DNA from: an uncultured bacterium
Lineage (GTDB): Bacteria; Joyebacterota; Joyebacteria; Joyebacterales; Joyebacteraceae
Length of the DNA stretch: 64,000 bases
Direction of reading: 5' to 3'
Assembly: GCA_964516845.1 (NCBI GenBank)
Contig: CAZEXP010000005.1
Span: 1,030-65,029 of the forward strand
This document shows, piece by piece, positions 6,116-26,312 of the stretch; within the stretch, counting starts at the first letter, position 1, and each line of letters opens with the position of its first letter. Under the pieces are notes generated by a model. It was given only the letters and a program-made list of their open reading frames with translations, made no database searches and had not been told where the DNA came from. The position numbers and the translations under genes are program-made.

Positions 6116-6583
6116 GTGAAGGCGCGCAACTACATGACCCGCGACGTTGTGACGGTCGGTCGTTCGACGAACATCGCCGAGATCGCGCGGCTCCTGCGGA
6201 CGCACAACATCACAGGCGTGCCCGTCGTGGACGATGACGGACACCTTCTCGGCGTGGTGACGCATGAGGAACTCATCAACATATTTCTGCCGCACTACCT
6301 GTCGATGTTCGATGATCTGGCGTTCCTCGACGACCTCAGCGCCATCGAGGCGCAGACGATGTCGGAGATCGAGCCGTCGCTCTTTCTCGCCGAGGATATC
6401 ATGCATGTCGATCCGCATACCGTGGGCCCCGACACTTCGATGATGAAGGTGGCAGCCGTTATGTTGAACAACAAGCACGTGCTCCTGCCCGTGGTCGATG
6501 ATGACAACCGTGTTGTGGGCGTCATCAACAGGAGCGCAGTGAGTTCCGCCTTCACGGGCGCCGCATCAGAGGAGGGGCGATGA
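6116..6583 (+). CDS. CBS-domain pair protein
   Basis: Two CBS motifs: ARNYMTRDVVTV...GVPVVDDDGHLLGVVT and LPVVDDDNRVVGVI. Confidence 0.9.
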   Translation: MKARNYMTRDVVTVGRSTNIAEIARLLRTHNITGVPVVDDDGHLLGVVTHEELINIFLPHYLSMFDDLAFLDDLSAIEAQTMSEIEPSLFLAEDIMHVDPHTVGPDTSMMKVAAVMLNNKHVLLPVVDDDNRVVGVINRSAVSSAFTGAASEEGR

Positions 6584-9500
6584 CCGACGCGCTGAGACGT
6601 ATTCTTCTGTCTGCCCGCCGCGTCGTTGCGCCTGCGGCCTTGATCCCGCTGGCGTTCCTTGTCTCCGCGCCCGCGTCTGCTCCCGCATCTGCGGCCGCGT
6701 CAGCGCTCTCGCCTGAACTCCTGTCGTCCGATGAGGGCGGCATCTATCTTCGGCTTGCCGTCGGTGACCCGACCATATCGACATTCATCGTCGATGGTGT
6801 CGAGTACTCGATCGTCACGCTTCCCGGGGCGAGTTCGACAGGCGAGCCCGGGATGCCTGAACTTCCTTGCGTGCGCGCCGTCCTGGGCGTGCCTGAGTGC
6901 GACGCTGTCGATCTCGAGGTCACACCCGGAGTCACGCGCCGGACGGGCGGCATCCGCGTGCTTCCCGCTCCCGGCATCTTCGACGCCGGCGAGGGGGAGC
7001 TCTCCCGCTACCCGCGGGTCGAATCAGACTCGTACGCGTCATCCGGGATCTGGCCCGAGCGGCCCGCGCGTGTGACCGCTCCGCGGTGGCTGGGGCCGCA
7101 GCGCACGGTCACCGTCGAGCTGTACCCGTGCCGCTTCGAGCCTTCGACCGGCGAACTCCTTGTTCACGAGACGCTCGATGTTGTGCTGCGATTCCGTGGG
7201 CTCAGGTCCACGCGTGGCGAGGACGGCTCGCCCGCTCGCCTGCGCCCGAGCCAGAAGCGCCTGCTCGACACAACGCTCCTCAATGCGGAGGGCGCACGAT
7301 CGTGGCTGCGCACCGGGCCGCTGAGCAACCGGCGGCGTCCGGACGACTACTACTCGACGTCGGAGAACTGGATTCGCCTGCGCGTCACCGACCGCGGTTT
7401 CCACCGCGTCGGGTACAGCGACATCGATGGCGTGGGTGTCACCGCTTCGATCATCGACCCGGCGACCTTCCGTGTCTTCACGGGTGGCGGCCTGCTTCTT
7501 CCCGAGGCGTTCGATGCTCCGCGCCCCGACTGGATGCAGGAGTGCACCATCATCGTCGATGATGGCGGCGACGGGAGCTTCGACGCCGGTGACGGCGTCG
7601 TGTTCTACGCTCTCGCGGAGGACGGCTGGGCGGACGAGTACGGCATCGTCGATCCCGACGAGCCTCACACCGAGCATCACTTCGCGAGTGAGAACATCTA
7701 CTGGTTGACCTGGGAGGATGAAGGTACATCGTCCGGATTCTCCTCGGCGCCGCTGAGGATGGCCCAGGACGATCTTCAGAATTCTCCGACGCCCATCTCC
7801 GTGGACGACCACTTCGCGCGCGCCCATTTTGAGCGGAACATCGTGATCAAGGAGGGGCGCGCCGATAACTGGTACTGGCACGACATGGGGCAGAGCGAGG
7901 ACTGGCGGTACTTCCATGAGCAGCTCGAGGGGGTCGTGACGGACTCACTGGGCGCGCTCCGCGCGCACATCGACGGGAACTCATCGACAGGCGGCGTCTA
8001 CCCCGATCATCATGTCCGCTTCCTGCTTAACGACGCGCTTGCCTACGACGCCGAGTGGGACGCGTACCAGCCGCTGTACTTCGAATCGAGCGGCCTGTCG
8101 ATCAACGAGGGCTACAACACGTTCGCGGTCAACATCCCGCACGACGTTCCCGGAGTCGATGACGAGGCGATCCTCATCGACTGGTTCGAGATTCTGTACT
8201 GGCAAACGCTTGCGCCCGCGGACGATCAGATCGTCTTCGGGAGTTCGGGCAGGACGGGCGTGCTGGAGTTCTCGGTCGACGGGTTCTCCACGTCCGACGT
8301 CACGGCCTTCAAGGTCGTTGACCAGTACACGGTTCTGACCGTCCCCGGCGTGTCGTCACGGCAGGGAGGGGACCGTGCGGTCACCGTGACGTTTCAGGAC
8401 GATGTGGCGGACACCGCTTCATACGGGGTCGTCAGCGGAGACGGCTATCTGACGCCGGTCATCGAACTCGACACATTCGTCGACCTGAGGACTCCGACGG
8501 ACGACGACTACATCATCATCGCCCATGACGATCTCTACGATCAGGCGCTGCGGTTGAAGGCGCACCGGGAGAGCAACGCGGGCGGCGGCTTCGACGTGCG
8601 CCTCGTGCGCGTCTCGGATGTGTATGACGAGTTCTCGTGGGGTCTCGTCGACGCGACGGCCATCCGCGACTACCTCAAGTTCACGTGGGAGACCGCGGCG
8701 AATCCGCCGACCCACGTCGTGCTCGTCGGAGACGGTACGGTGGATCCGCGGCAGTACTCGGCATCGAGTCTGAGGACGTACATCCCCGTGCACTATACGC
8801 ACATCGGCGGGAATTCGGCTTCGCCGTCCTACTGGCCGACCGAGTTCTGGTACACGGGATTCGACGCGATCTACGAATACATTCCCGGCATGGCGCTCGG
8901 TCGTCTGACGGCCAACTCCGTCAACGAACTCTCCACGATGCTCGACAAGATCATTGACTATGACACGGACCACGGGGCCGCGCTCTGGCGGAACACCGCG
9001 ATCCTCGCGGGTGACGACGAGTACACCTACGACAACGATACCGAGTACTTCCACGCGGAACAGACCGAGAGGCTCTCGGATGAGATCCTGCCGTTCGCGA
9101 TCGACCGTGAGAAGCTCTTCCTCATGGAGTACGAGAAGGTCGGGCAGTTCAAGCCGGCCGCGCGCGCGGCGTTCCTCGATCTCTGGAACAAGGGTGCCGT
9201 CCTCGTGAACTACACCGGGCATGGCAGCGAGATCGTCATGGCACATGAGTCGCTCTTCTACTTCGATGATGTCACCCTCCTTACGAACAGGCCGGGGCTG
9301 CCGCTGTTCTTCGCCGCGTCGTGCCGACTGAATAAGTTCGATAGAATGACCGTCGATTCACTGGGTGAGGCGCTCGCCAAGTCGGCCAACGGCGGGTCGA
9401 TCGTTTCCATCGGAAGCACGAGGGATTCGGGGGCGTCCCAGAACGCTGCATTCAACAGGGACATCCTCGGCGCCATGTTCGGCAATCAGCAGGCTGATCC

Positions 9501-10650
9501 GGCTGCGGTACTCGATGTCGGGCTGGCCGTTCAGGCGGGCGTTGCGCTGTCCGGCAGCTATTCCGCGTGGCTCAACGACACGAGGTTCATGATCGTCGGG
9601 GATCCGGCGATCGTTCTGGCGACACCCACGGGGAGCGGGAGCCTCTCTTCGGATGAGGTGGACCCGATGATGCGGCGCGACGAGGTCGAACTCGATGGAA
9701 CGTGTTCCGGATCGACCGCGGACCTCGATGGCATAGCCGTCGTACGCGTGAGCGAGTCCGCCGACACCACCGGGTACACGCTGCCGTCCAACGGTCATCA
9801 CGTCGACTACGCGTTGCCCGGGGACACCGTGTTCAATGGTCCCGTGACCGTCTCGAATGGTGCGTTCGACGCTCGGTTCATAGTCTCCTATGCCACGGCC
9901 GAGGGGCCCTACGGCAGGATTCGGGCATACTGCTACGACGATGGCACGGATGGCGCGATCTCAATGGAGAACGTTGCGATCGCGGACAGCGTAGAGACGA
10001 CGGACGCTGTCGGTCCCACGATCACGATCGAGTTCGCGGGCGGCGCCACCTCGGTGCTGCCGGGCGCGGAACTGATGATGGCGATCTCGGACGAGAGCGG
10101 CATCAACACCGTGACCGGCGGCTACGGCGCCCCGATTTCGCTTGTTCTCGACGGAGGCGATTCGACAGATGTTACGGGGGCCTTCGTGTACGATGTGGGA
10201 AGCCACCAGTCGGGCACGGTCGATTTCGATCTGCCGAGCCTGTCGTTCGGGGCGCACACGATCGAACTCGCCGCGAGCGACAACATGGGCAATCGGTCGA
10301 GCGGTCAGCTCTGGTTCGAGATCGTGTCTGCTGCGGACTTCGAGGTCCGGAACGTGGCCAACTACCCGAATCCGTTCCCGGATGGGGGAGAGACCGGGAC
10401 GTGGCTGATGTTCCAGCTTCCGGGACCGGCCGACGTGCGTATCGATATCTTCACGGTCGGCGGTCGGAGGATTCTCACACTGGATGACATTCCGGCGAGC
10501 GCCGGCGCGAATCAGGTCTACTGGGACGGGCGAGACGTCGTGGGTGACGAGCTGGCGAACGGCGTGTACCTTTTCAGGATTCACGCGGTCTCCGAGAGCT
10601 ATCGCGGCGACAAGGCGGAGGCCATAGGGCGGGCTGTCATCATGCGGTAG
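6580..10650 (+). CDS. porU: PorU-like C25 (gingipain-family) sortase with propeptide and a C-terminal Ig-like secretion-signal domain
   Basis: Signal peptide; C25 propeptide (PGMPELP); NYTGHG (His881) and FFAASC (Cys915) dyad; PorU-type D-x-x-GP-x-I region; CTD with NYPNPF...LANGVYLFRI...GRAVIMR. Confidence 0.85.
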   Translation: MTDALRRILLSARRVVAPAALIPLAFLVSAPASAPASAAASALSPELLSSDEGGIYLRLAVGDPTISTFIVDGVEYSIVTLPGASSTGEPGMPELPCVRAVLGVPECDAVDLEVTPGVTRRTGGIRVLPAPGIFDAGEGELSRYPRVESDSYASSGIWPERPARVTAPRWLGPQRTVTVELYPCRFEPSTGELLVHETLDVVLRFRGLRSTRGEDGSPARLRPSQKRLLDTTLLNAEGARSWLRTGPLSNRRRPDDYYSTSENWIRLRVTDRGFHRVGYSDIDGVGVTASIIDPATFRVFTGGGLLLPEAFDAPRPDWMQECTIIVDDGGDGSFDAGDGVVFYALAEDGWADEYGIVDPDEPHTEHHFASENIYWLTWEDEGTSSGFSSAPLRMAQDDLQNSPTPISVDDHFARAHFERNIVIKEGRADNWYWHDMGQSEDWRYFHEQLEGVVTDSLGALRAHIDGNSSTGGVYPDHHVRFLLNDALAYDAEWDAYQPLYFESSGLSINEGYNTFAVNIPHDVPGVDDEAILIDWFEILYWQTLAPADDQIVFGSSGRTGVLEFSVDGFSTSDVTAFKVVDQYTVLTVPGVSSRQGGDRAVTVTFQDDVADTASYGVVSGDGYLTPVIELDTFVDLRTPTDDDYIIIAHDDLYDQALRLKAHRESNAGGGFDVRLVRVSDVYDEFSWGLVDATAIRDYLKFTWETAANPPTHVVLVGDGTVDPRQYSASSLRTYIPVHYTHIGGNSASPSYWPTEFWYTGFDAIYEYIPGMALGRLTANSVNELSTMLDKIIDYDTDHGAALWRNTAILAGDDEYTYDNDTEYFHAEQTERLSDEILPFAIDREKLFLMEYEKVGQFKPAARAAFLDLWNKGAVLVNYTGHGSEIVMAHESLFYFDDVTLLTNRPGLPLFFAASCRLNKFDRMTVDSLGEALAKSANGGSIVSIGSTRDSGASQNAAFNRDILGAMFGNQQADPAAVLDVGLAVQAGVALSGSYSAWLNDTRFMIVGDPAIVLATPTGSGSLSSDEVDPMMRRDEVELDGTCSGSTADLDGIAVVRVSESADTTGYTLPSNGHHVDYALPGDTVFNGPVTVSNGAFDARFIVSYATAEGPYGRIRAYCYDDGTDGAISMENVAIADSVETTDAVGPTITIEFAGGATSVLPGAELMMAISDESGINTVTGGYGAPISLVLDGGDSTDVTGAFVYDVGSHQSGTVDFDLPSLSFGAHTIELAASDNMGNRSSGQLWFEIVSAADFEVRNVANYPNPFPDGGETGTWLMFQLPGPADVRIDIFTVGGRRILTLDDIPASAGANQVYWDGRDVVGDELANGVYLFRIHAVSESYRGDKAEAIGRAVIMR

Positions 10651-10761: not shown

Positions 10762-11748
10762 ATGAGAAGTACGAAGCTACTCATGGCGGTCATGGTTCTC
10801 GCGGCGATTGCGAGCGCCGCATCCGCTCAGGTCTCCATCGGCGGAGCGCAGTCTCTCTACATCCAGCCCGGGGCGCGGCCGGCCGGCATGGGGGACTGCT
10901 TCGTCGCAATCGCCGATGACGCCAGTGCCGTGTCGTGGAATCCCGCGGGTCTTGCGTGGGTCGACGGACGTGTCAATTTCACGCTCATGCACACGCAGCT
11001 TGTTCCCGACTGGGACGACGTCTACTACGAGTACGCGGCCTACGCGCAGCGCGTGGAGGGCCTCGGCACGATCGGAGCGTCGCTCATCTATCTGACGTAC
11101 GGTGAGCAGGCCGCCACCGATCCCGACAGTCCCGATGTGGTCGGTTACTTCGACAGCTACGAGATCATTCCGTCCGTCTCGTACGGGACGGAGATCAGCG
11201 AGAACCTCGCCGTCGGTCTCAATCTGAAATTCGTCTACGTCAACCTCGCGCCGGCGCAGTACACGCAGGACCAGCAGAAGGGTTCCGGCTCGACGTTCGC
11301 GGCGGACCTTGGCGTTCTCTATCGGATGTGGGAGGATCGCCTGCGACTGGGCGCCGCCGTTCAGCACGTGGGTCCGCGGATCGCCTACATCGATGAAGAG
11401 CAGTCCGACCCGCTCCCGCGCAATCTCAAGATGGGCGTGGCGTACAAGGTCCTGTCGGATGAAATGAACGTGCTTCTCGTCACGGCCGAGTACAACAAGT
11501 CGCTCGTCATCATCGAGGACATCGCGGACCAGTCGGTCGGCGTGATCATGAATTTCGGAGCCGAGTACCGGTACTACGACCTCTTCGGTCTGAGGGGTGG
11601 ATACGTCCACGATGAGGACGGAGAGGTGAAGGGTTTTGCCTTCGGGATGGGCCTGAAGTACCACAATTGGGCGTTCGACGTGGCGAACGTGCCGCAGGCC
11701 GAGGGCCTCAAGCGGCCGTTCCGATTCTCTCTGAGCGCTACGTTCTAG
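10762..11748 (+). CDS. porV: PorV/PorQ-family outer-membrane protein
   Basis: L-x-I-x-PGARPAGMGD, DDASAVSWNPAGLA, DPLPRNLKMG and a C-terminal Phe; lies directly after porU. Confidence 0.85.
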   Translation: MRSTKLLMAVMVLAAIASAASAQVSIGGAQSLYIQPGARPAGMGDCFVAIADDASAVSWNPAGLAWVDGRVNFTLMHTQLVPDWDDVYYEYAAYAQRVEGLGTIGASLIYLTYGEQAATDPDSPDVVGYFDSYEIIPSVSYGTEISENLAVGLNLKFVYVNLAPAQYTQDQQKGSGSTFAADLGVLYRMWEDRLRLGAAVQHVGPRIAYIDEEQSDPLPRNLKMGVAYKVLSDEMNVLLVTAEYNKSLVIIEDIADQSVGVIMNFGAEYRYYDLFGLRGGYVHDEDGEVKGFAFGMGLKYHNWAFDVANVPQAEGLKRPFRFSLSATF

Positions 11749-11812: not shown

Positions 11813-11872
11813 TTCTCACAGGCGGATGACCGCAGGTGGCCGAGCGTGGCTGTGGCCGGGCACAACGGGGGG

Positions 11873-14800
11873 ATGGTGACGAGGTTGAACACGCGAGCGA
11901 AAGCGCTGAGGACCCTGCTGGTGATCGTAGCCGTCGCGCTCATGCTTCCGGTGGTCGCTTCCGCGGCGTCGACACTTCTTTGCACCAAGGACACCGAGCG
12001 GCCGCTCGAGGAGCTGCAGGCGGTCAACGCGAAGTACTTCCCGAGTCAGCCCGCGCGTGTGAGCGCCATCGAACTGGCGCGGCAGCGGGGGCGCGGGGAC
12101 GGCGAGCGGACGACGCTTCGGTTCCTGGCGCTCCGTGTCGAGTTCCAGCCTGACGACGATCCCCTGAGCACGGGCGACGGGACGTTCAACTACTCGCCAT
12201 GGGATGGCTCGACGTTCGATGGACCGCCGCACGACCGCGAGTACTTTGAGCTTCACATGACAGCGGCCAAGAGCTACTTCGAGTCGGTCTCGCACGGCGA
12301 GGTCGAGATCGAGTTCACGGTGGCTCCCGCCGACTCGCACGCGGCGTACGTGCTCCCGTATGAGATGGGCTACTATCACGATTACTCGGACGCGCAGGTC
12401 TGGTACGTCTCACAGGTCGAAGCGTTCACGCGGGACGCCTTCGCGGCGGCCGACACGACCGACTCGATCGACTTCTCGGAATACGACGGCTACGTCATCT
12501 TCTTCGCGGGCTCGGACTGGCAGAGCGACATCTACTACGATACGCCGTACGACCTGCCGGCGGCTCACATCACACTTGGGGAGCCGATCGTGGTCAACGA
12601 CGGCGCGCACGAGATCTGGAACGCGTCGCTGATGCCCGAGACCTCGAGCCAGGACGGTCTCACGGCGGTTCTCAACGGGACGCTGGTCCACGAGATGGGT
12701 CACGGCATCGGTCTTCCCGACCTCTACAACACATCGAATTTCTTTCCATCGATCGGCTACTGGGGCATCATGGACTCCGGCGGCCGCATCGGCATGAACA
12801 CGCCCTGGGGGTACGCGTACGGTCTGATCCCGGTGCCGCCGTGCGCCTGGTCGCTCGAGTACCTCGGGTGGACGGACCCCGTGGTCATCATTGAGGACTC
12901 CGAGAACCTCGAGGTCAAGGCCTCTGTCCTGAGGGGCGGCGGATACCGGACGTTCAAGATCCCGATCACGAGCACCGAGTACTACCTCGTTGAGAACCGG
13001 ATGGACGACATCGGCAAGGACGGGCTCGTCGCCATCGAACAGGAACGGGGCGTCGTGCTCGGTCCGGTCGACCCCGACTGTCAGCAGCAGATATGTCCCG
13101 TCAACAACGAGTACGACTTTCTGCTCCCGGGCCCCGGGATGCTCATCTATCACATTGACGACACTCGCGTGATTCCCGGACTGATGCCGTACGACGCGGT
13201 GAACTACGACCGCAACCGGAGGGGCGTCGCGGTCGAGGAGGCCGACGGCATTGAGGACCTCGGCGATGTCGGCAGTTTCTACTGGACGGGCAGCAGGTTT
13301 GATCCGTTCTTCGCGTCGAACAACGATTCGTTCTCGTACGACACGTTTCCATCGACCGACGACAATCTCGGCGCCAGGAGCTACATCTCGATCACGGGCA
13401 TCTCGGAACCGGACTCCATCATGACGATGGACGTCCGATTCAACCGCTGGAAGGACGGCTGGCCGATCCAGTTCGAGGGGGAGACGGCGGGGATCGCTCC
13501 GCGCGTTGCAGACCTCGATGGCGACGGCGACATGGAGGTCGTGCTCGCCACGACCGACGGCCTTGTCTATGCGTTCCATCACGACGGCTCGGCGGTGCTT
13601 CCAGACTGCGCCGGCCCGTCCGGCTTCATCGCGATCGCAGGCGGTGACATATCGCAGACTCCGGCGCTCGCGGACCTTGACGGAGACGGCCAGCTCGAGG
13701 TCGTGGTCGTTTCGGACGACGGCATGCTGCACGCGTGGCACGCGGTCGACAATGACGGGAACGGTCACGCCGACCCGGTCTCGGACCACTTCCCGGTCGA
13801 GATCGGCGGACCGGCGAGCGCCCCCCCGGTCGTGGCGGATCTTGACGAGGGCTTCGGTCTTGAGATCGCGGCGACCTCCCGGGGCGGCGATCTCGTCGTC
13901 GTGGATCAGGTCGGGCGCCCGGTCGGGACTTCGCCGTATTCGTTCGGCGCGCTCGTGCTCGACGACGTGACGATGGCGGCCGGAGACCTGGACGCCGACG
14001 CCGAACTGGAACTCGTGTTGTCGACGACGAACAGGGGATGGGTCATCGCGCTCAATGCGGACGGAACACCGCTTCCGGGCTGGCCCGTCGAGGTCGAAGG
14101 TTGGGAGCGCGAGGCTGTTGGCGTGCTCCTCGGCGATCTGGACCGCGGACGTGACGGACGACTCGACGTGATCGCCGTCGGTTCGGACGGACGCGCGTTT
14201 GCGTGGGATCGTCGCGGCGAGGAACTCGCGGGGTGGCCTGTCGATCTCGGTGAAGAGGTCGTGGGGCGGTCCTCTCTGGGTGATCTCGACGGCGATGGTT
14301 TCCTCGAGCTTGTCGTTCCGGTCGGCTCGACGCAGGTTCGCGGCATCCGGGCGAACGGCACGGCGGTCGAGAACTGGCCATTGAGTTTCTCATCGGGTGA
14401 CAGCACCCGCAGCTCCTCAGCCTCGCCCCTGGTCGGGGATATCGATGGTGACGGTGGGATCGACGTGGTCATGAGCGGCCCCGGAGGCGGCGTCTACGCG
14501 TGGGACGGTCTCACCGGCGACGTACTGCCGGGATGGCCGCTCTCGTCGGATGTCGCGCTCGGCACGCCGTGGATCGGGGACGCGGAGGGCGACGGAGAGA
14601 TTGACCTCCTGATTGCGGGTCGCAGCGGTCGCGCGCTCTTCTACCGCCTGCCGTACGATGCGTCTCCGGGCGCAATCGTCTGGCCGACGGAGGCAGGGAA
14701 TCCGGCGGGGACCGGTTGTTTCGCGGACTCGCTCCTCGGCGAGGAGTTCGAGGAGACGCCTACGCTCATGGTGCAGGATCGCACGTACTGCTATCCGAAC

Positions 14801-15073
14801 CCGGCGCGCGAGGAGGACATCACGATCAGGGTCTATCTCGAGGAGTCGATGGACATCCTCGTGGAGATCATGGACGTCACGGGTCAGATCGTTGAGACGC
14901 TCCGTGCCGACGGTGTTCCAACGGCCAACGAGCTGGTCTGGGAGACCGACGGCGTGGCGAGCGGTCTCTATCTGGTCCGAGTCGAGGTCGGGTTCGAGAT
15001 GATCGATGTGTTCGGCGGCGGCATGGCCGGGCGCATTGAGGAGAAGCTGATGAAGGTCGCCCTGATTCGATAG
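11873..15073 (+). CDS. Secreted M6 (immune inhibitor A-like) metalloprotease with FG-GAP repeats and a T9SS-type CTD
   Basis: HEMGHGIGLPDLY, WGIMDSG and EYYLVENR motifs; about 8 DLDGDG-type repeats; CTD CYPNPA...VASGLYLVRV...KVALIR. Confidence 0.88.
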   Translation: MVTRLNTRAKALRTLLVIVAVALMLPVVASAASTLLCTKDTERPLEELQAVNAKYFPSQPARVSAIELARQRGRGDGERTTLRFLALRVEFQPDDDPLSTGDGTFNYSPWDGSTFDGPPHDREYFELHMTAAKSYFESVSHGEVEIEFTVAPADSHAAYVLPYEMGYYHDYSDAQVWYVSQVEAFTRDAFAAADTTDSIDFSEYDGYVIFFAGSDWQSDIYYDTPYDLPAAHITLGEPIVVNDGAHEIWNASLMPETSSQDGLTAVLNGTLVHEMGHGIGLPDLYNTSNFFPSIGYWGIMDSGGRIGMNTPWGYAYGLIPVPPCAWSLEYLGWTDPVVIIEDSENLEVKASVLRGGGYRTFKIPITSTEYYLVENRMDDIGKDGLVAIEQERGVVLGPVDPDCQQQICPVNNEYDFLLPGPGMLIYHIDDTRVIPGLMPYDAVNYDRNRRGVAVEEADGIEDLGDVGSFYWTGSRFDPFFASNNDSFSYDTFPSTDDNLGARSYISITGISEPDSIMTMDVRFNRWKDGWPIQFEGETAGIAPRVADLDGDGDMEVVLATTDGLVYAFHHDGSAVLPDCAGPSGFIAIAGGDISQTPALADLDGDGQLEVVVVSDDGMLHAWHAVDNDGNGHADPVSDHFPVEIGGPASAPPVVADLDEGFGLEIAATSRGGDLVVVDQVGRPVGTSPYSFGALVLDDVTMAAGDLDADAELELVLSTTNRGWVIALNADGTPLPGWPVEVEGWEREAVGVLLGDLDRGRDGRLDVIAVGSDGRAFAWDRRGEELAGWPVDLGEEVVGRSSLGDLDGDGFLELVVPVGSTQVRGIRANGTAVENWPLSFSSGDSTRSSSASPLVGDIDGDGGIDVVMSGPGGGVYAWDGLTGDVLPGWPLSSDVALGTPWIGDAEGDGEIDLLIAGRSGRALFYRLPYDASPGAIVWPTEAGNPAGTGCFADSLLGEEFEETPTLMVQDRTYCYPNPAREEDITIRVYLEESMDILVEIMDVTGQIVETLRADGVPTANELVWETDGVASGLYLVRVEVGFEMIDVFGGGMAGRIEEKLMKVALIR

Positions 15074-15133
15074 GTCCAAGCCGACGGAACGTCGGCCGTG
15101 ATCCGGTCGCCGTGCGGCTTTGCGGGAGACGTG

Positions 15134-15922
15134 ATGAGACTTCTGGCAGCGTTCATGATCACACTGATAGCGGTGCCCGCGCTCTGCGCGGGGCCGACTG
15201 CTGTGACCGCACGCGTGATGCCCGAGGATCTCGTGCTCATCTCGTCGCTCGGCTTCGCTGAGGAGCTTCTCGAGACGGACGCGGAGAACGGGGGAGCCTC
15301 CGGCGGCACGAGGACGTCGCACGACCCGCCGAAGATGATGCTCCTGTCTCTGGCCGTGCCCGGCGCCGGCCAGATCGTGCAAGGGGAGAAGCGCGGCTAC
15401 ATCTACCTCCTGCTCGAGGCGGCCATGTGGGGCGGCTTCTACTACCTGGACAAGCAGGGTCTCGACGAGCGGGGTGATTACGAGGACTTCGTCATCGACA
15501 ACTGGAATCTGGCCGCGTACCAGGATTTCTTCAATGAGAACTGCCTGGAAGACCCGCAGGACTACGCCAACGGCTGCCGGCCGCTGGCGCCGGAGGGCTC
15601 GCAGGAGTTCTACGAGGACGTCGGCAAATACGATGTCTACTGGCCGTGGTGGAGCGGGGACGGCTCGCCGAACGACGTCACCGCCGAGGACATGGCGCTC
15701 AGGGACGAATACTGGGGGATGCGCAAGGACAGCAACTCGCATCTGAGGGAGGCGCGCTACTTCATGATGGCCGCGCTGCTCAACCACGTTGTGAGCGCTC
15801 TTGATTCGTTCTTCATCGCCAGGGCGCCCGCGGAAGCGGAGCCGCCGGCCGACCTGGGTCTTGAGTTCGGCGTGCCCGATGGACCGATCGGGCTGACCTG
15901 TGCACTCGTTGCGAGGTACTGA
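15134..15922 (+). CDS. Hypothetical exported/membrane protein (DUF5683/TM2-like SxxxPGxGQ motif), paralog A
   Basis: Signal peptide; LLSLAVPGAGQ, LLLEAAMW and LLNHVVSALD motifs shared with the next gene. Confidence 0.65.
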   Translation: MRLLAAFMITLIAVPALCAGPTAVTARVMPEDLVLISSLGFAEELLETDAENGGASGGTRTSHDPPKMMLLSLAVPGAGQIVQGEKRGYIYLLLEAAMWGGFYYLDKQGLDERGDYEDFVIDNWNLAAYQDFFNENCLEDPQDYANGCRPLAPEGSQEFYEDVGKYDVYWPWWSGDGSPNDVTAEDMALRDEYWGMRKDSNSHLREARYFMMAALLNHVVSALDSFFIARAPAEAEPPADLGLEFGVPDGPIGLTCALVARY

Positions 15923-15932
15923 GGAGCTGCAG

Positions 15933-16760
15933 ATGAGTCGATGCTTCGTGCCCCTTTGTGTGATCCTGATACTGGTCTCGACGCAGGCCGCTCTCGCCGA
16001 ATCGTATTTTCCGTCCGGCGCGTCCGGTGGCCTCGCCAGGCAGGGGCTCTCGCTCCGAGCCGACGACCCGATCTCCGATCTGGCTCCGGAACAGCAGCCG
16101 AAGGAGCCCGTTCACGCAGCCGGCGGGCGTGAGGAGAAGAACCCGCTCGTCGCAATGCTCATGTCATTCGCCGTTCCCGGGTGGGGGGAGTTCTACACGG
16201 GGCACGACGGCCGCGGACGCGCGTTCATGGCGGCCGAGGGTGCGATCTGGATCGGGTACGCCTCGTACAGCGTGCAGGAGCGGATGCGGGTCGACGACTA
16301 TGAGGAGTACGTCTCGGTCTACCTGGACGTGGAGCAGGGCGCGGACCACACGTACTATGAGGATATTGCGGACTACATGCGCAGCGAGGGGTCCGACAGC
16401 TACAACGAAGACATCCGGAGCGAGGCGAGGAGCCTGTTTCCGGACGACCTCGACGCGCAGGAGCGCTACTTCGCGGAGCACGGTTACTTCGGCGGCGACG
16501 GATGGGACTGGGGAGATCGTGACCGGCTCGAGGAGTACCGCGAGCTTCGGCACGGGGCGTCGGTGTCATCACGCAACGCCTTCTACATGACCGGGCTTGC
16601 CGTGCTCAACAGGGCGCTCTCGGGTATCGACGCCGCGTGGATGGCGAGACGCCACAACGCCGGTCAGAGCGGGACCCCGGCGGTGAGGCTCTCGGTCGCA
16701 CCGGTGCCGGATGAGAACGGGCTGTGCGGCAGCCGCACGACGCTCGAGTTCTCCTTCTGA
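15933..16760 (+). CDS. Hypothetical exported/membrane protein, paralog B
   Basis: GAGGAG RBS before ATG 15933; signal peptide; LMSFAVPGWGE, AAEGAIW and VLNRALSGID motifs; ends LEFSF. Confidence 0.65.
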   Translation: MSRCFVPLCVILILVSTQAALAESYFPSGASGGLARQGLSLRADDPISDLAPEQQPKEPVHAAGGREEKNPLVAMLMSFAVPGWGEFYTGHDGRGRAFMAAEGAIWIGYASYSVQERMRVDDYEEYVSVYLDVEQGADHTYYEDIADYMRSEGSDSYNEDIRSEARSLFPDDLDAQERYFAEHGYFGGDGWDWGDRDRLEEYRELRHGASVSSRNAFYMTGLAVLNRALSGIDAAWMARRHNAGQSGTPAVRLSVAPVPDENGLCGSRTTLEFSF

Positions 16761-16787: not shown

Positions 16788-16859
16788 CAGCATCCCCCTT
16801 TCGCGGAGCACGCCATGATGCTCGCACTGTTCCCGCCGCAGGCGACGCGACGGACGTCC

Positions 16860-17768
16860 ATGAGGCGTTGTCTCGATCTCGTGTTCATCGCGGTCATCAC
16901 TTCACTTGTTCTTCCACTTGCCGCGGCCGGCTCGGTGATCGCACTCGATCTCGTTGGGGAGATCGGTGGCGACGCATGGGACGTGGATGGTCCGACGGCG
17001 CTGGCCGTTGACCACCGGGGACGTCTGTACGTCGTCGACAGCGGTCACCATCGCGTGCTCGTGGTCGAGCCGGATGGCTCGATCGTCCGGGAGCTCGGCG
17101 GGTACGGGTGGGAAGAGGACAGCCTCGATCGTCCGCTCGACGTGGTCGTCGACCGCGGCCTGGCGACGTATGTCCTCGACGCGGGGAACCGGCGCGTCGT
17201 CGAGTACGATGCCGAGGGGAACTACCTCGGGGTTGTGCTCGACGAGGAACAGGTTGGGAACCCGGTCGGTCTGGAACTCGGTTCGGCCGGCGAACTCTAT
17301 GTCACTGACGCCGACGCGCAGATCGTCCGGGTCCACTCGCAGTTCGGGGAGCCGCTTGACCCGATAGGCAGCTTCGGCGGGGAGGGTGGCGGTCTCGTCG
17401 GTCCGACGCGCGTCGCCATGGGGCCGTCGCGCGTGCTGGCGATTGCCGACCCCGCGGCCGCCGTCGTCCTGCTCTACGACGAGTTCGGTTCGCCTCTTGC
17501 CCGGCTCTCGGGCACCGGGGAATTCACGCCATACGACATCATCTTCGATCCGCGCGGCAATCTCATCGTCGCGGACCCGCGCAACGGCACGGTCCTGGCG
17601 TTCGATTGCGCCGACGGCTCGGTCACCGCGGTCGCCGGTCGGGACCAGATGGGGTCTTCGGCTCTGCCTTCCGGGCTGGCGATCGATCGGACGGGGAGGC
17701 TTCTTGTCCTGGACGGAACCTCGGGTTGCGTGTTCATCTTCGCGCTCGAGTACGACACAAAGCACTAG
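16860..17768 (+). CDS. Secreted NHL-repeat beta-propeller protein
   Basis: Repeats such as PTALAVDHRGRLYVVDSGHHRV, PLDVVVDRG and PVGLELGSAGELYVTD; signal peptide from ATG 16860. Confidence 0.85.
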   Translation: MRRCLDLVFIAVITSLVLPLAAAGSVIALDLVGEIGGDAWDVDGPTALAVDHRGRLYVVDSGHHRVLVVEPDGSIVRELGGYGWEEDSLDRPLDVVVDRGLATYVLDAGNRRVVEYDAEGNYLGVVLDEEQVGNPVGLELGSAGELYVTDADAQIVRVHSQFGEPLDPIGSFGGEGGGLVGPTRVAMGPSRVLAIADPAAAVVLLYDEFGSPLARLSGTGEFTPYDIIFDPRGNLIVADPRNGTVLAFDCADGSVTAVAGRDQMGSSALPSGLAIDRTGRLLVLDGTSGCVFIFALEYDTKH

Positions 17769-20700
17769 ACCGCTTATCGGAGCGATCCTTGCCATCGCCC
17801 TTCTCGCCGCGTTCGTGACGACCGCGGGCGCCGGCACCCTGGCGAGGACGAGCGGGCGCCGCGTGGTCGATCTGACGGGGGTGGACCTCGCCGACGGGCG
17901 TGTCGCGCTTCCGGACTCGTTGATCGTCGCCGGCAGCGACACGGTGCTCGTCAGCGATCGTCCCGCCGAGCGGGGCGTCGACTACGTCCTGGACGTCTCC
18001 GCTTCCAGCCTTCGCTTCCTCCGCGACCTTCCGGATACCGCGCGCATATCTCTCAGCTACCTCTATATTCCCGGGGCTCTCGCCCGCGAGCAGCGATACG
18101 CGATGCTCGATGCCACGGGGGAACTCCCGAATGTGTTCGCCGCGCCGGAGAGCCTCGTGAGTCTGCGCATCGCGGAGCCCGATCGCGCACCCGTCGGGTC
18201 GGGTCTGAGGATAGGGGGCGCCAAGACGTTCGGTGTCAGCGTGGGCTCCGATCGGGACCTCAAGCTCGAGCAATCGCTCCGCCTGAACGTCGAGGGCCGG
18301 GTCGCCCGGGATGTGTCCGTCCGCGCGTATCTCTCAGACCAGAACACGCCATTGCTGCCCGAAGGGGACACGGAGGAGCTGCGCTCACTTGACAAGGTTC
18401 TCGTCGAGATCGAGGGCAAGGATGTCTCCGCAACGATGGGGGACATCGTGCTCGACATGACGTCGGGGAGTCTCCTGTCGATGCGTCGTGAACTGGCGGG
18501 TGTTATGGTGACGGGCAAGCGGGGTCCGCTCAGTGTCCTGCTCGCCGGCGCGCAGGCCTCGGGTGAGCAGACGACCGCGGCCTTCATTGGCGTTGAGGGG
18601 AAGCAGGGGCCGTATCTGCTCCCGAACGCGTCGGGCGCAGTCGGCGTCACGATCGTTGCGGGAAGCGAGCGCGTCTGGCTTGACGGCGCTCGGCTCAAAC
18701 GGGGGAGCGACAACGACTACGTCATCGACTACGCGTCCGGCGAGCTTCAGTTCTCGGAGACGCGGCCGATCACGGCCGAGAGCCGGATCGACGTGGACTA
18801 CGAATGCGCCACCTCCGATTTCGACCGCGACGTCTACGGGGGCACCGCCGGTCTCCGCTCCGCCGATGGGCGGATGGAGTTCGGCGCCGCATACTTCCGG
18901 GAGTCCGATGATGATTCGTCCCCGACGAGCGTGGACCTGTCCGACGACGATCTCGCACTGCTGGCCGCGGCCGGCGACGACATCGAACTGGCCCACGACG
19001 ACGGCGTCGATTCGGTCGGGTACGGGAACGGCGACTACGAGAGGCTGCCCGACGGGACGTTCGAGCACGCGGGCGCGGATTCCGGATCGTTCGAGCTCGA
19101 TTTCGAACGCTCTGACGGCGGCGACTACGCCTACGACTATGTCGCCGGGCATTACTACTATGCGGGTGAGGGGGTGGGGACACACCGGCTCGGGCGACAG
19201 CTGCCGCTTCCAACGGACGCGTCGCTGCTGGCGGTCAACGGGGCGGTGCGCCTCGAAGGCGGAGGGTTCGTCGAGGCCGAGGCCGCGCTGTCGACCTATG
19301 ACCGGAACACACTCTCCGACCTCGATGATGATGACAACCTCGGGAACGCCGGGGTCGTACGGCTCGAGGCGCCGTCGCTGACGGGCGGTGTCCTCGGGGA
19401 CTCGCGTCTGACGGCGTCCGCGGCAGGACGGCGCGTGGCGGGGAACTTCCGGGGGAACGGGCGGTTTCGCGAGACGGGCTATGAGGATCACTGGGAACTT
19501 CGCGGTCTCGAGGTTCCGACAGCCGAGCTCACGGGTGAGGGCACGCTGCGGTTCGACATGCCGGGCGGCGGGTCGGCCGAGGTCCGGCACGGGCGACTGG
19601 AGCGCGGTGACGCGCTGACCTCGATGCGGACGCGGTTCTCGGTCGAGGCATCACCGGCGGAGCGCGCTCGCGTCTGGCTGAGCGGCCGGATCGTTGACCT
19701 CGACTACACGGCGGCCGCGGACACGGCACTCACGCGGGAGCGGAGGCTCTACCGCGCGGGCGGCGACGTCACGCTGGGTCACGTGCGGCCGGGAGCGACC
19801 TGGACGAGCGATGAGGCGACCGAGGACGGCGTCGGGGAGCGCTACGACGAGTACGGCGTGACGCTGGCGAGCGCCGGTCTGAGGGGCGCCGGCCTGCGGG
19901 CAGGGTACGCGTATCGGATGACCGACCGGCGCGGGGAGTCGGACGACTGGTCGCGCGCGGCCGTGACGGCGACACAGACCTACGGCCTGGAGCTGACCCG
20001 CTGGGAGCCGCTCACGGTGGACGCGAGTGTCGTTCGTAGGAGGACCGACTTCGAGGACGGGCTCGCGGAGTCCGACACGCGTTCGGATCTGGCCCGCGTT
20101 CGGCTCGGTCACTCGTCGCTCGGCGGGGCCGTCCAGGGCGAGGTCCGATACGTCGTCACCACGACCGAGGTCGAGGAGAAGGAACGCTACGTCACCGAGG
20201 AGGACGGTGTCGAGGTGACGCGCATTATCTCCACCGGACGGTACCTGCCGGTGACCGATCTGAGCGCCGGGACGCGGTGGAGTTTCCGTCCCGGCTCGGG
20301 CGGTACGACGCCGTCGGGGCTTCCCGACCCGAGCGCGCTGCGGCGCTGGCTTGCGCGTTTCTCGTTCGAGACCGACCTCAAGCTGCGCGAGGCGACGACC
20401 ACCGATGAGAAGGAGCGGCTCTATCTGCTGGACCCGTCGGTCCTCCGCGGGGACGACACCGTCAGTGGGGAGCTCACCGGTCGCCACACGCTGAGATACG
20501 CCTCCGCCGGGGGGACGTTCGTGAGCCGTCTTGCGCTGCGGACGGCTGACGAGCTGGAGCGCGTCTATTCGAACTCGCCCGAGGAGCGGCGCGATCGGGA
20601 GGTCACGCTCGAGTTCAAGCTCGCCGCATCCCGAGGCCTGACCTATCGCGTCCAGGGCGAGGCAGGCGAGCGTCGCCGTGACTCCGAAGGCACGGTCGAC

Positions 20701-21099
20701 AGCTACGATCTTGATGTCAGGTCGCTTCTCGCCGAGGTCGCTCATCGCGGCTCCGGCGCGGTCGAGGTGCGGTTGACCGGCGTGTACGGGACCGAGGACG
20801 ACGCGGTGACCGGGGTCGCGGCCGATGTCTGGAAGCTCACGCCGGCCGTTACGTACCGGCTGAAGGGGCGCGGGTCGATCTCGGCCAGTCTCACCCGGTC
20901 GAGCGTGGCGGCCTCCGGCGGCGAGTTGCCGCGCTACATGGCCGAGGGACGGGTGGAGGGAGGGGCGGCCGATTGGCGGCTGTCGGCCGACTATCGCTTC
21001 AATCGATTCGTCACGGGCAATCTGAACTACACCGGGGAGCGGCGGCCCGGTTCCGACGATCGCCATACGGTCGATCTCAGAGTGAATGCGTTCTTCTAG
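17704..21099 (+). CDS. Large (~1130 aa) hypothetical outer-membrane barrel protein of FCB type
   Basis: In-frame TTG 17704 after GGGAGG; hydrophobic signal segment; GAKTFGVSVG...SLRLNVEG...LSDQNTPLLPEG and GKQGPY...GSERVWLDG...DYVIDY motifs; ends VNAFF. The start is uncertain. Confidence 0.75.
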   Translation: MSWTEPRVACSSSRSSTTQSTRPLIGAILAIALLAAFVTTAGAGTLARTSGRRVVDLTGVDLADGRVALPDSLIVAGSDTVLVSDRPAERGVDYVLDVSASSLRFLRDLPDTARISLSYLYIPGALAREQRYAMLDATGELPNVFAAPESLVSLRIAEPDRAPVGSGLRIGGAKTFGVSVGSDRDLKLEQSLRLNVEGRVARDVSVRAYLSDQNTPLLPEGDTEELRSLDKVLVEIEGKDVSATMGDIVLDMTSGSLLSMRRELAGVMVTGKRGPLSVLLAGAQASGEQTTAAFIGVEGKQGPYLLPNASGAVGVTIVAGSERVWLDGARLKRGSDNDYVIDYASGELQFSETRPITAESRIDVDYECATSDFDRDVYGGTAGLRSADGRMEFGAAYFRESDDDSSPTSVDLSDDDLALLAAAGDDIELAHDDGVDSVGYGNGDYERLPDGTFEHAGADSGSFELDFERSDGGDYAYDYVAGHYYYAGEGVGTHRLGRQLPLPTDASLLAVNGAVRLEGGGFVEAEAALSTYDRNTLSDLDDDDNLGNAGVVRLEAPSLTGGVLGDSRLTASAAGRRVAGNFRGNGRFRETGYEDHWELRGLEVPTAELTGEGTLRFDMPGGGSAEVRHGRLERGDALTSMRTRFSVEASPAERARVWLSGRIVDLDYTAAADTALTRERRLYRAGGDVTLGHVRPGATWTSDEATEDGVGERYDEYGVTLASAGLRGAGLRAGYAYRMTDRRGESDDWSRAAVTATQTYGLELTRWEPLTVDASVVRRRTDFEDGLAESDTRSDLARVRLGHSSLGGAVQGEVRYVVTTTEVEEKERYVTEEDGVEVTRIISTGRYLPVTDLSAGTRWSFRPGSGGTTPSGLPDPSALRRWLARFSFETDLKLREATTTDEKERLYLLDPSVLRGDDTVSGELTGRHTLRYASAGGTFVSRLALRTADELERVYSNSPEERRDREVTLEFKLAASRGLTYRVQGEAGERRRDSEGTVDSYDLDVRSLLAEVAHRGSGAVEVRLTGVYGTEDDAVTGVAADVWKLTPAVTYRLKGRGSISASLTRSSVAASGGELPRYMAEGRVEGGAADWRLSADYRFNRFVTGNLNYTGERRPGSDDRHTVDLRVNAFF

Positions 21100-24935: not shown

Positions 24936-25022
24936 TCCTCCGGACGTTCAGCTGGACCGCCCGGAGTGAGGATCATGCCCCCTCCGCACCATCATCACAG
25001 CAGCCAGAGGAATGGGGTTCCC

Positions 25023-26312
25023 ATGCTGGTCATGAAGGAGACGCGCGACGGGCGGACGACGCCCGATCTCGAGGCCGTCGCGTGTGAAGAGGGCATCGAC
25101 GTCGCGCTGCTGGCCGAACAGGTGGCCAACGGCCGTGTCGCAATCATGAAGAACTCGAACAATTCGCATCGTCCCGTTGGCGTGGGTGAGGGGCTTCGGA
25201 CGAAGGTCAACGCCAATCTGGGGACATCATCGGACGCCTCGGACATCGAGGAGGAACTTCTCAAGGTCGACGCCGCGATCGAAGCCGGCGCGGACGCCGT
25301 CATGGACCTTTCCACGGGCGGCGATATCGACATGATCCGCCGCGCGGTCGTCGAGCGCTCCACCGTTCCGGTCGGAAGCGTTCCCCTCTATCAGGCGGCC
25401 ATCAAGGCGCGTCGCGAAGGTCGTGGGATGGTCAACATGACGCCCGATGAGATCCTCGACGGCGTGCGGGCTCATCTGGACGACGGTATCGACTTCGTCA
25501 CCGTCCACTGCGGTGTGACGCGCGAGGTCGCCGGCCACTGCAGGCGCACTCCGCGGCTCGCGGACGTCGTCAGCCGGGGCGGCTCGTTCCTGATGGAATG
25601 GATGTCCTACAACGACGCGGAGAACCCGCTCTACGAGCGCTACGACGACCTTCTGGATATCGTGGCCGAGTACGACGCGACGATCAGTCTTGGCGACGGA
25701 CTCAGGCCCGGCGCGTTGGCGGACGCCAACGACGCGGCCCAGATCGCCGAGCTCACCGTGATCAGCGAACTGGTGTTGCGCGCGCGCGAGCGCGGTGTGC
25801 AGACCATCGTCGAGGGCCCGGGACACGTGCCGCTCGATCTGGTGGCGTCCTCCGTGGAGCTCGAGAAATCGCTCTGCCACGGCGCGCCGTTCTACGTGCT
25901 CGGACCGCTCGTGACCGACGTTGCGCCGGGATACGACCACATCGTCGGCGCCATCGGCGGCGCGGTCATCGCCATGGCAGGCGCGGACTTCCTCTGCTAC
26001 GTCACACCCGCCGAGCACCTGCGTCTTCCGACCATCGAGGACGTGAAGGAGGGCGTCTACACGTTCCGCGTGGCCGCCCATGCCGCGGACATCGCCAAGG
26101 GTATCCCGGGTGCGCGGGATTGGGACGACCGCTTCTCGGCGGCCCGCAGGGCGCTCGACTGGGACACGATGATGAAGCTCTGCCTCAACCCCGAGAAGGC
26201 GAAGAGCTTCCGCGACGCGGCCCCGCCCTCGGACGACCGCCTCTGCTCGATGTGCGGCGAGTACTGCGCCGTGCACAAGATGAGCGGTGTCCGCGAGAGG
26301 GAGGGCGAATGA
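25023..26312 (+). CDS. thiC: Phosphomethylpyrimidine synthase ThiC (short type); a ThiC-family Bza paralog is not excluded
   Basis: KVNANLGTS, DAVMDLSTGG, VSRGGS, EGPGHVP, CYVTPAEHL and C-terminal CSMCGEYC. Confidence 0.85.
   Translation: MLVMKETRDGRTTPDLEAVACEEGIDVALLAEQVANGRVAIMKNSNNSHRPVGVGEGLRTKVNANLGTSSDASDIEEELLKVDAAIEAGADAVMDLSTGGDIDMIRRAVVERSTVPVGSVPLYQAAIKARREGRGMVNMTPDEILDGVRAHLDDGIDFVTVHCGVTREVAGHCRRTPRLADVVSRGGSFLMEWMSYNDAENPLYERYDDLLDIVAEYDATISLGDGLRPGALADANDAAQIAELTVISELVLRARERGVQTIVEGPGHVPLDLVASSVELEKSLCHGAPFYVLGPLVTDVAPGYDHIVGAIGGAVIAMAGADFLCYVTPAEHLRLPTIEDVKEGVYTFRVAAHAADIAKGIPGARDWDDRFSAARRALDWDTMMKLCLNPEKAKSFRDAAPPSDDRLCSMCGEYCAVHKMSGVREREGE

Follow-up and report, generated by a model that had tools for sequence, protein, structure and literature searches.

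The T9SS, or type IX secretion system, drives virulence-factor secretion, polysaccharide degradation and gliding in Bacteroidota and their relatives, and to our knowledge SprA/Sov is the only known T9SS outer-membrane conduit. Among other outer-membrane proteins, LptD has a barrel of 26 strands, and a TonB-dependent receptor combines an N-terminal plug domain with a barrel of 22. SprA itself has 36 strands and an extracellular cap (PMC10994853). Here we describe a gene whose product, which we call the barrel, is very probably a giant barrel related to SprA at about half its length. It occupies positions 17704-21099 of a stretch of 64,000 nucleotides (nt) from an uncultured bacterium of the Eisenbacteria (GenBank assembly GCA_964516845.1, contig CAZEXP010000005.1, positions 1,030 to 65,029 of the forward strand); this whole stretch is referred to below as the window.

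Relationship of the barrel to SprA

No Pfam model matched the barrel even at E <= 1 in the six family members checked, and its sole significant NCBIfam match was TIGR04189 (SprA/Sov; E 4e-6), which aligned residues 315-369 with profile positions 602-654. This match is local only, its 24.1 bits lying below the curated whole-protein cut-off of 200 bits. The same local match was found in six of eight very distant members of the family. True SprA proteins all carry PF14349, which the barrel lacks. The genome to which the window belongs encodes a full SprA of 2148 amino acids (aa) on another contig, and comparison of the barrel with this protein by BLASTP and phmmer gave collinear local matches.

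We compared an alignment of the barrel family (A1, 37 sequences) with one of SprA proteins (A2, 26 sequences) using hhalign, and repeated the comparison with 119 and 51 sequences. Three regions matched SprA at a probability of 95-97%, over 84-197 columns each. The longest match pairs query residues 163-371 with SprA 271-540 (197 columns, 95-97%) and takes in the first seven barrel strands together with the insert that follows them; the other two pair query residues 315-403 with SprA 719-806 (97%) and query residues 50-126 with SprA 698-775 (96%). Near the C-terminus, residues 918-1101 aligned with SprA 1850-2048, a weak match (29%, E 6e-4) that is nonetheless collinear, and the last ~45 residues of the two proteins match faintly. 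A direct sequence search against PDB chains returned nothing useful (troponin at E 0.8), and the family profile reached SprA among those chains at E 0.13 only.

The sequence carries two copies of an RG-DY-(I/L)D motif, ERGVDYVLD (residues 89-97, nt 17968-17994) and KRGSDNDYVIDYASGEL (residues 332-348, nt 18697-18747). Their likeness to SprA goes beyond chance: each lies in a module of ~70 residues, and both modules match the same SprA module at 96-97%. The module around the first motif is also found by hmmsearch in the Flavobacterium johnsoniae SprA structure 6H3I (residues 687-735). The barrel and SprA both hold a copy in the same place, after strand 7. A first-pass annotation, made from the window alone, had connected motifs of the form G.DY.(I/V)DY..G with SprA and had proposed that the protein is related to SprA; the profile comparisons bear out both suggestions. 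They indicate that the barrel shares ancestry with SprA, that its N-terminal ~400 residues are homologous to those of SprA, and that its C-terminal strands probably are too. SprA residues ~810-1850, some 1000 residues in the middle of the protein, are without a counterpart in the barrel and would hold the inserts that make up the extracellular cap.

The repeated module (17851-18078 and 18601-18813) also matches phage distal-tail and tail-tube families faintly (TIGR02217/DUF2460-type, NF052337 and a chain of PDB 6TBA). These matches are probably why some members are labelled "DUF2460 domain-containing protein" in UniRef, and they may stem from a common beta-sandwich fold without implying any link in function.

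Predicted architecture

An AlphaFold2 (AF2) model of the barrel, built from alignment A1, had a mean predicted local distance difference test score (pLDDT) of 80.9 and a predicted TM-score (pTM) of 0.71. It places a small beta domain at residues 45-121, followed by a disordered linker and 39 long strands at residues 167-1130, with an insert domain after strand 7. From strand 8 onward, further inserts occur at residues 408-504, 581-607, 862-918 and 1072-1085. A second model, of a 20%-identical homolog from a Bacteroidales metagenome-assembled genome (MAG) with its own alignment (A3), had a pLDDT of 80.9 and a pTM of 0.70 and is laid out alike; each of the two models has about 39-40 long strands, in proteins of ~1130-1150 aa. 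Both models are in keeping with the very wide barrel at about half the length of SprA that had been suggested from the sequence, and as predicted the protein is best described as full-width and half-length relative to SprA.

SprA chains were the top match of both models in a Foldseek search of the PDB (E 7e-10 and 3e-10), at TM-scores of 0.23-0.27. The fold search is consistent with a SprA relationship and does not decide the matter. Because the fold similarity is weak in TM-score, the case for homology rests on the profile comparisons.

Nearly all residues that are invariant across the family fall within residues ~170-545, in loops and insert domains and not in strands, and most are in the second copy of the module. 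The invariant segments are LSDQNTPL-PEGDTEEL, GKQGPY, IVAGSERV...RG..DYVIDY..GE and LDDDDN-G. To judge from the sequences, such clustering is more in keeping with a conserved surface for interaction or gating than with a passive porin.

Distribution and co-occurrence with SprA

A profile search of 1.84 billion cluster representatives recovered 5127 members when the threshold was E <= 1e-3 and 2310 when it was E <= 1e-30. Of the 150 matches listed, nearly all have a length of 1000-1250 aa. Named genomes with the family belong to Eisenbacteria, Krumholzibacteriota, Gemmatimonadota, Fibrobacteraceae, Cloacimonadota, WOR-3, Marinimicrobia, Ignavibacteriales, Rhodothermales and Bacteroidales. In the phylum to which the window belongs, the family is present as one copy in 24 of 25 genomes; in Flavobacterium it is present as one full-length copy in 373 of 401 species genomes (93%). 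Close relatives of F. johnsoniae with a member include F. crocinum, F. luteolum and F. nitrogenifigens.

No Pfam or NCBIfam model covers the family. Every one of the ~60 close homologs of the barrel is named "hypothetical", and members in Flavobacterium, Chryseobacterium, Changchengzhania, Rhodocaloribacter, Balneola and Gracilimonas are likewise each a "hypothetical protein". A few members bear the automatic UniRef labels porin, TonB-dependent receptor or DUF2460, none of which is supported by Pfam at E <= 1 in the six members checked. A TonB-dependent receptor would also be expected to match the Plug and TonB_dep_Rec models, which the barrel does not, and about 39-40 strands are predicted here.

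We found a full-length SprA in all 49 of the barrel-carrying genomes tested, which leads us to reject the idea that the barrel replaces SprA in phyla other than Bacteroidota. In an even sample of 251 Bacteroidota genomes, in which the barrel and SprA result lists were compared by hand, 168 genomes carry both, 31 carry SprA only, 52 carry neither, and the barrel never occurs by itself. The barrel is therefore present in 168 of the 199 SprA-positive genomes (about 84%) and in none of the 52 SprA-negative ones; its phyletic pattern is strictly nested within that of SprA-bearing genomes. The name "mini-translocon", under which the protein had been proposed, misleads in one respect: the barrel is predicted to be as wide as that of SprA, and it always accompanies SprA and never replaces it.

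The barrel gene and its start site

The open reading frame (ORF) that contains the gene spans 17386-21099 on the forward strand. The TTG at 17704 is the sole canonical in-frame start 5' of the hydrophobic segment and yields a protein of 1131 aa (Table 1). Its N-terminus reads MSWTEPRVACSSSRSSTTQSTRPLIGAILAIALLAAFVTTAGAG, followed across the putative cleavage site by TL, and comprises a positively charged stretch and the hydrophobic segment PLIGAILAIALLAAFVTTAGAG. The putative cleavage site was placed by alignment with homologs P0007, P0008 and P0010, all three of which keep the same signal and the AGAG-TL junction. The 5' end of the gene overlaps the end of the upstream NHL gene by 65 nt. At the other end the protein closes with VDLRVNAFF. 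The signal, the terminal Phe and the two motifs, all noted at first sight of the sequence, were thus confirmed in the 1131-aa translation, as was the position of the gene directly before an Omp85 gene with POTRA domains.

As called in the public record (P0003, 1094 aa), the protein begins at a GTG (V38) within the signal peptide, in 17704-17818, and so loses the signal. Close homologs P0004-P0006 were called with the same short start. Because homologs called at greater length show the full signal, the N-termini of P0003-P0006 are probably truncated.

Table 1. Features of the barrel gene and of the surrounding array, in window coordinates
Feature	Coordinates	Strand	Basis
Half-length SprA-like outer-membrane barrel gene (predicted), 1131 aa	17704..21099, including stop codon	+	ORF, homologs, AF2, hhalign
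Putative Sec signal peptide, residues 1-44, cleavage after AGAG	17704..17835	+	Sequence and alignment with homolog N-termini; cleavage inferred
Predicted N-terminal small beta domain, module copy 1 "RG-DY-(I/L)D", residues 50-125	17851..18078	+	hhalign 96%, hmmsearch, short strands 45-121 in model
Predicted barrel strands 1-7, residues 167-295, homologous to the first strands of SprA; includes family-invariant loop LSDQNTPLLPEGDTEEL	18202..18588	+	hhalign, DSSP on model, invariant columns
Predicted inserted domain, module copy 2, residues 300-370, IVAGSERVWLDG...KRGSDNDYVIDYASGEL (18697-18747)	18601..18813	+	TIGR04189 E 4e-6, hhalign 97%
Remaining ~32 predicted strands, residues 361-1131, short loops	18784..21096	+	DSSP on AF2, same plan in 20%-identical homolog, weak collinear hhalign
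PorU (T9SS sortase), first gene of array	6580..10650	+	NF033707 505 bits (cut-off 420)
PorV-family carrier protein	10762..11748	+	NF033709 237.6 bits, above cut-off
M6-like metalloprotease-fold/FG-GAP protein with T9SS type A C-terminal sorting domain	11846..15073	+	NF052323 391 bits (cut-off 600), Por_Secre_tail
Two paralogous ~280-aa signal-bearing proteins	15098-15922 and 15900-16760	+	Conserved position
NHL-repeat beta-propeller protein	16815..17768	+	Pfam NHL, sequence
Omp85-family protein, 577 aa	21112..22845	+	Pfam POTRA and Omp85
LigA	22923-24935		Gene after Omp85

A conserved array with T9SS genes

The first-pass annotation had pointed to porU, porV and proteins that bear the T9SS C-terminal domain (CTD) as genes with which the barrel might be linked. 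We found the barrel gene within a conserved array of nine genes in the order porU-porV-CTD cargo-x-x-NHL-barrel-Omp85-ligA, which complements the nesting of its phyletic pattern in that of SprA. The order is repeated around a 28%-identical homolog, and the same array occurs across four or more phyla, with loci in Eisenbacteria, Krumholzibacteriota, Gemmatimonadales (Gemmatimonadota) and Fibrobacteraceae (Fibrobacterota). Among the upstream neighbours of the barrel the NHL gene, whose product bears a Sec signal but lacks a lipobox, persists most: it is found there in these four groups and in Salinibacter and Salinivenus, which keep only the NHL-barrel pair. A Marinimicrobia locus keeps the barrel and a short Omp85. 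In Bacteroidia and Rhodothermia we found no conserved T9SS neighbourhood apart from one PorP/SprF gene, downstream of the barrel in a Bacteroidales MAG, and the NHL gene of Salinibacter and Salinivenus.

The pair of ~280-aa paralogs always sits between the cargo gene and the NHL gene. The window copies match no Pfam or NCBIfam model; a counterpart at a distant locus matches DUF5683. The two share the segment LS(L/F)AVPG(A/W)G, and the second ends in ...LEFSF. Both proteins may belong to the same module as additional parts. The M6-like/FG-GAP protein, whose model NF052323 is titled "T9SS-dependent M6-like inactivated metalloprotease", keeps its place after porV across phyla, and, in the manner of PorZ, it could be a cargo that doubles as a component of the system. 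The PorV of the array is the best of at least five PorV/PorQ paralogs in this 2.6-Mb genome; at least five genes score above the family cut-off and about nine belong to the family overall, which makes a large set of candidate carrier barrels for a genome of this small size. So many paralogs could leave room for a separate carrier.

At the far end of the array, ligA follows the Omp85 gene in nearly every full-array locus (loci L007-L079; Eisenbacteria, Krumholzibacteriota, Gemmatimonadales and Fibrobacteraceae), a synteny unusually deep for a housekeeping gene beside an envelope module. Beyond it, in window positions 24966-29245, an exonuclease-DinG fusion ORF listed from 25598 overlaps a thiC-family gene (24966-26312) by ~700 nt. 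Its true start is probably near 26309, because the 960-aa product of locus L007 starts as thiC ends.

The neighbouring Omp85 and the other Omp85 loci of the genome

The Omp85 encoded next to the barrel combines POTRA domains with a barrel domain of the 16-strand type, and at 577 aa it is about the size of Escherichia coli TamA. The genome encodes five Omp85 paralogs, this one included. On each of two contigs, C6 (10157-13763) and C14 (21678-24885), a TamB-family gene immediately precedes an Omp85 gene. One pair is TamB-TamA-like, a 1443-aa TamB followed by a 656-aa Omp85; the other sets a 1356-aa TamB-like ORF beside an 825-aa BamA-like protein. A separate LptD-like gene is found on another contig. 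Because the genome has these separate LptD-like, TamB-Omp85 and BamA-like loci, the barrel can be equated with neither LptD nor TamB, and the gene beside it encodes an additional Omp85. Nor does the barrel match the models for LptD (PF04453) or TamB (PF04357).

In quick maximum-likelihood trees, the barrel-adjacent Omp85s from five phyla form one clade (Shimodaira-Hasegawa-like approximate likelihood ratio test, SH-aLRT, 99), apart from the BamA clade (SH-aLRT 100) and from a TamA-like clade. Members of the barrel-adjacent clade that are unlinked to a barrel gene occur in Salinibacter, Rhodocaloribacter, Balneola and Changchengzhania. The trees support what would be an old, specific partnership between the barrel and this Omp85 clade.

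Likely role of the barrel

Among the roles we considered, that of an accessory T9SS outer-membrane pore or dock is the most likely. We lean, with modest confidence, towards a SprA-paralogous giant barrel that acts in this way and has a dedicated insertase. Of the parts of this proposal, a functional tie to the T9SS is likely in its own right; that the barrel itself is a protein-conducting pore is tentative, and we would sooner doubt it than assume it.

The protein would be exported by Sec and would form one giant beta-barrel of about 38-40 strands in the outer membrane. As an ancient paralog of SprA/Sov, it would keep the first strands, the two "RG-DY-IDY" modules and probably the last strands, and it would be cap-less, the central ~1000 residues of SprA being gone. 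The co-encoded Omp85 paralog would insert it into the outer membrane. Gating or plugging may fall to the N-terminal and inserted domains of the barrel itself, to the periplasmic NHL propeller encoded alongside, or to both. It would work beside SprA; its most likely field would be the PorV/PorU branch of sorting or a subset of cargo. A bolder proposal, which we regard as rather unlikely, is that a second giant pore, so far undescribed, exists in most T9SS-bearing bacteria. This cap-less paralog of SprA, with an Omp85 and a propeller partner of its own, would give part of the CTD cargo a separate path for export or surface sorting, or would represent the ancestral minimal T9SS translocon.

Several observations weigh against an accessory T9SS pore or dock. 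The profile comparison with SprA is significant for the N-terminal ~400 residues only, and the Foldseek TM-scores are low, with TonB-dependent receptors and LptD close behind SprA. The counts that associate the barrel with the T9SS ignore shared ancestry. Across Bacteroidia and Rhodothermia the gene sits by itself amid unrelated neighbours that vary (DsbD, ExbB, Dus, peptidases and kinases). Because 31 of the 199 SprA-bearing Bacteroidota do without it, the barrel is not a core part of the T9SS. It did not turn up in those published T9SS genetics and pull-down studies that could be searched, which suggests that it is dispensable for the usual readouts. Our literature searches found no description of a half-length SprA family; a paper on the Porphyromonas gingivalis "Aim" operon concerns the BamA locus, a different gene.

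The alternative that fares best, although we think it unlikely, is that the barrel is a T9SS-linked scaffold or assembly factor and not a channel. Domains of its own or the NHL propeller would fill it, and it would anchor or organise other outer-membrane parts of the T9SS (PorV/PorQ-type carriers, the attachment complex) or help to build SprA. The phyletic and neighbourhood evidence speaks for a scaffold as much as for an accessory pore or dock, the clustering of invariant residues in loops and inserts suggests a conserved binding surface, and since SprA is always present too, a second pore is not obviously needed. A barrel of ~40 strands would, however, be costly as a mere anchor, and the nearest relative of known function, SprA, conducts protein; neither point is decisive.

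Quite improbable, in our view, is a transporter unrelated to the T9SS, such as a porin for large solutes, an uptake channel or an exporter of lipid, lipopolysaccharide (LPS) or lipoprotein, whose distribution would merely follow descent within the Fibrobacterota-Chlorobiota-Bacteroidota (FCB) group. The solitary gene and its unrelated neighbours in Bacteroidia and Rhodothermia fit such a protein, as do the automatic names "TonB-dependent receptor" and "porin family" in UniRef and the presence of TonB-dependent receptors and LptD among the Foldseek matches. Yet there is no Plug, TonB-dependent receptor, LptD or TamB Pfam match at E <= 1, the genome has LptD-like and TamB genes of its own elsewhere, SprA-negative Bacteroidota are without the barrel (0 of 52), and the linkage to porU and porV is kept across four phyla.

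That the likeness to SprA is confined to a shared, mobile beta-sandwich module in a barrel of independent origin is very improbable: the strongest SprA matches do fall on the ~70-residue module, which also has its faint phage-tail matches, and whole-chain TM-scores are low, but the 197 columns aligned at 95-97% include the seven strands before the module, the C-terminal strands are collinear with those of SprA (E 6e-4), and the module follows strand 7 in both proteins.

Next to SprA itself, the family represents a second barrel that is related to SprA and has much the same predicted width, widespread and without annotation; a role in secretion or cargo sorting would mean that the current T9SS parts list is incomplete. 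A natural "SprA without cap" could help to separate the contributions of barrel and cap, and the conserved pairing of giant barrel and private Omp85 is relevant to the insertion of very large barrels. The question is directly testable, because Flavobacterium species carry the gene.

Comparison with known systems

The barrel resembles LptD-LptE in being a large barrel with an N-terminal beta domain and, by analogy only, in a possible lumen partner, which is LptE there and would be the NHL protein here. It differs from LptD in having no LptD Pfam match and in a family distribution that tracks the T9SS rather than LPS. With TamA-TamB and BamA the locus shares an Omp85 with POTRA domains encoded beside an envelope protein of more than 1000 aa. 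Here, however, the large partner is a predicted barrel with a C-terminal Phe and not a groove protein of the TamB/AsmA type (no PF04357), and the Omp85 beside it groups separately from both BamA and the TamA-like proteins.

The closest described system is SprA/Sov (TIGR04189, PF14349; F. johnsoniae PDB 6H3I, 6H3J, 8GL6 and 8GL8). Like SprA, the barrel would be a single-chain giant, with about 38-40 predicted strands. The two have homologous first strands, they share the NIIEGSEVVxLNG..L.RG.DY.IDY..G module, which is present twice, and their last strands probably match; the barrel, moreover, is found only in FCB bacteria that have the T9SS. SprA proteins are ~2000-2800 aa long, whereas members of the barrel family are ~1000-1250 aa (1131 in the window) and are without the central ~1000 residues. 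All genomes tested that carry the barrel also encode a true SprA, and the barrel comes with an Omp85 and an NHL propeller of its own.

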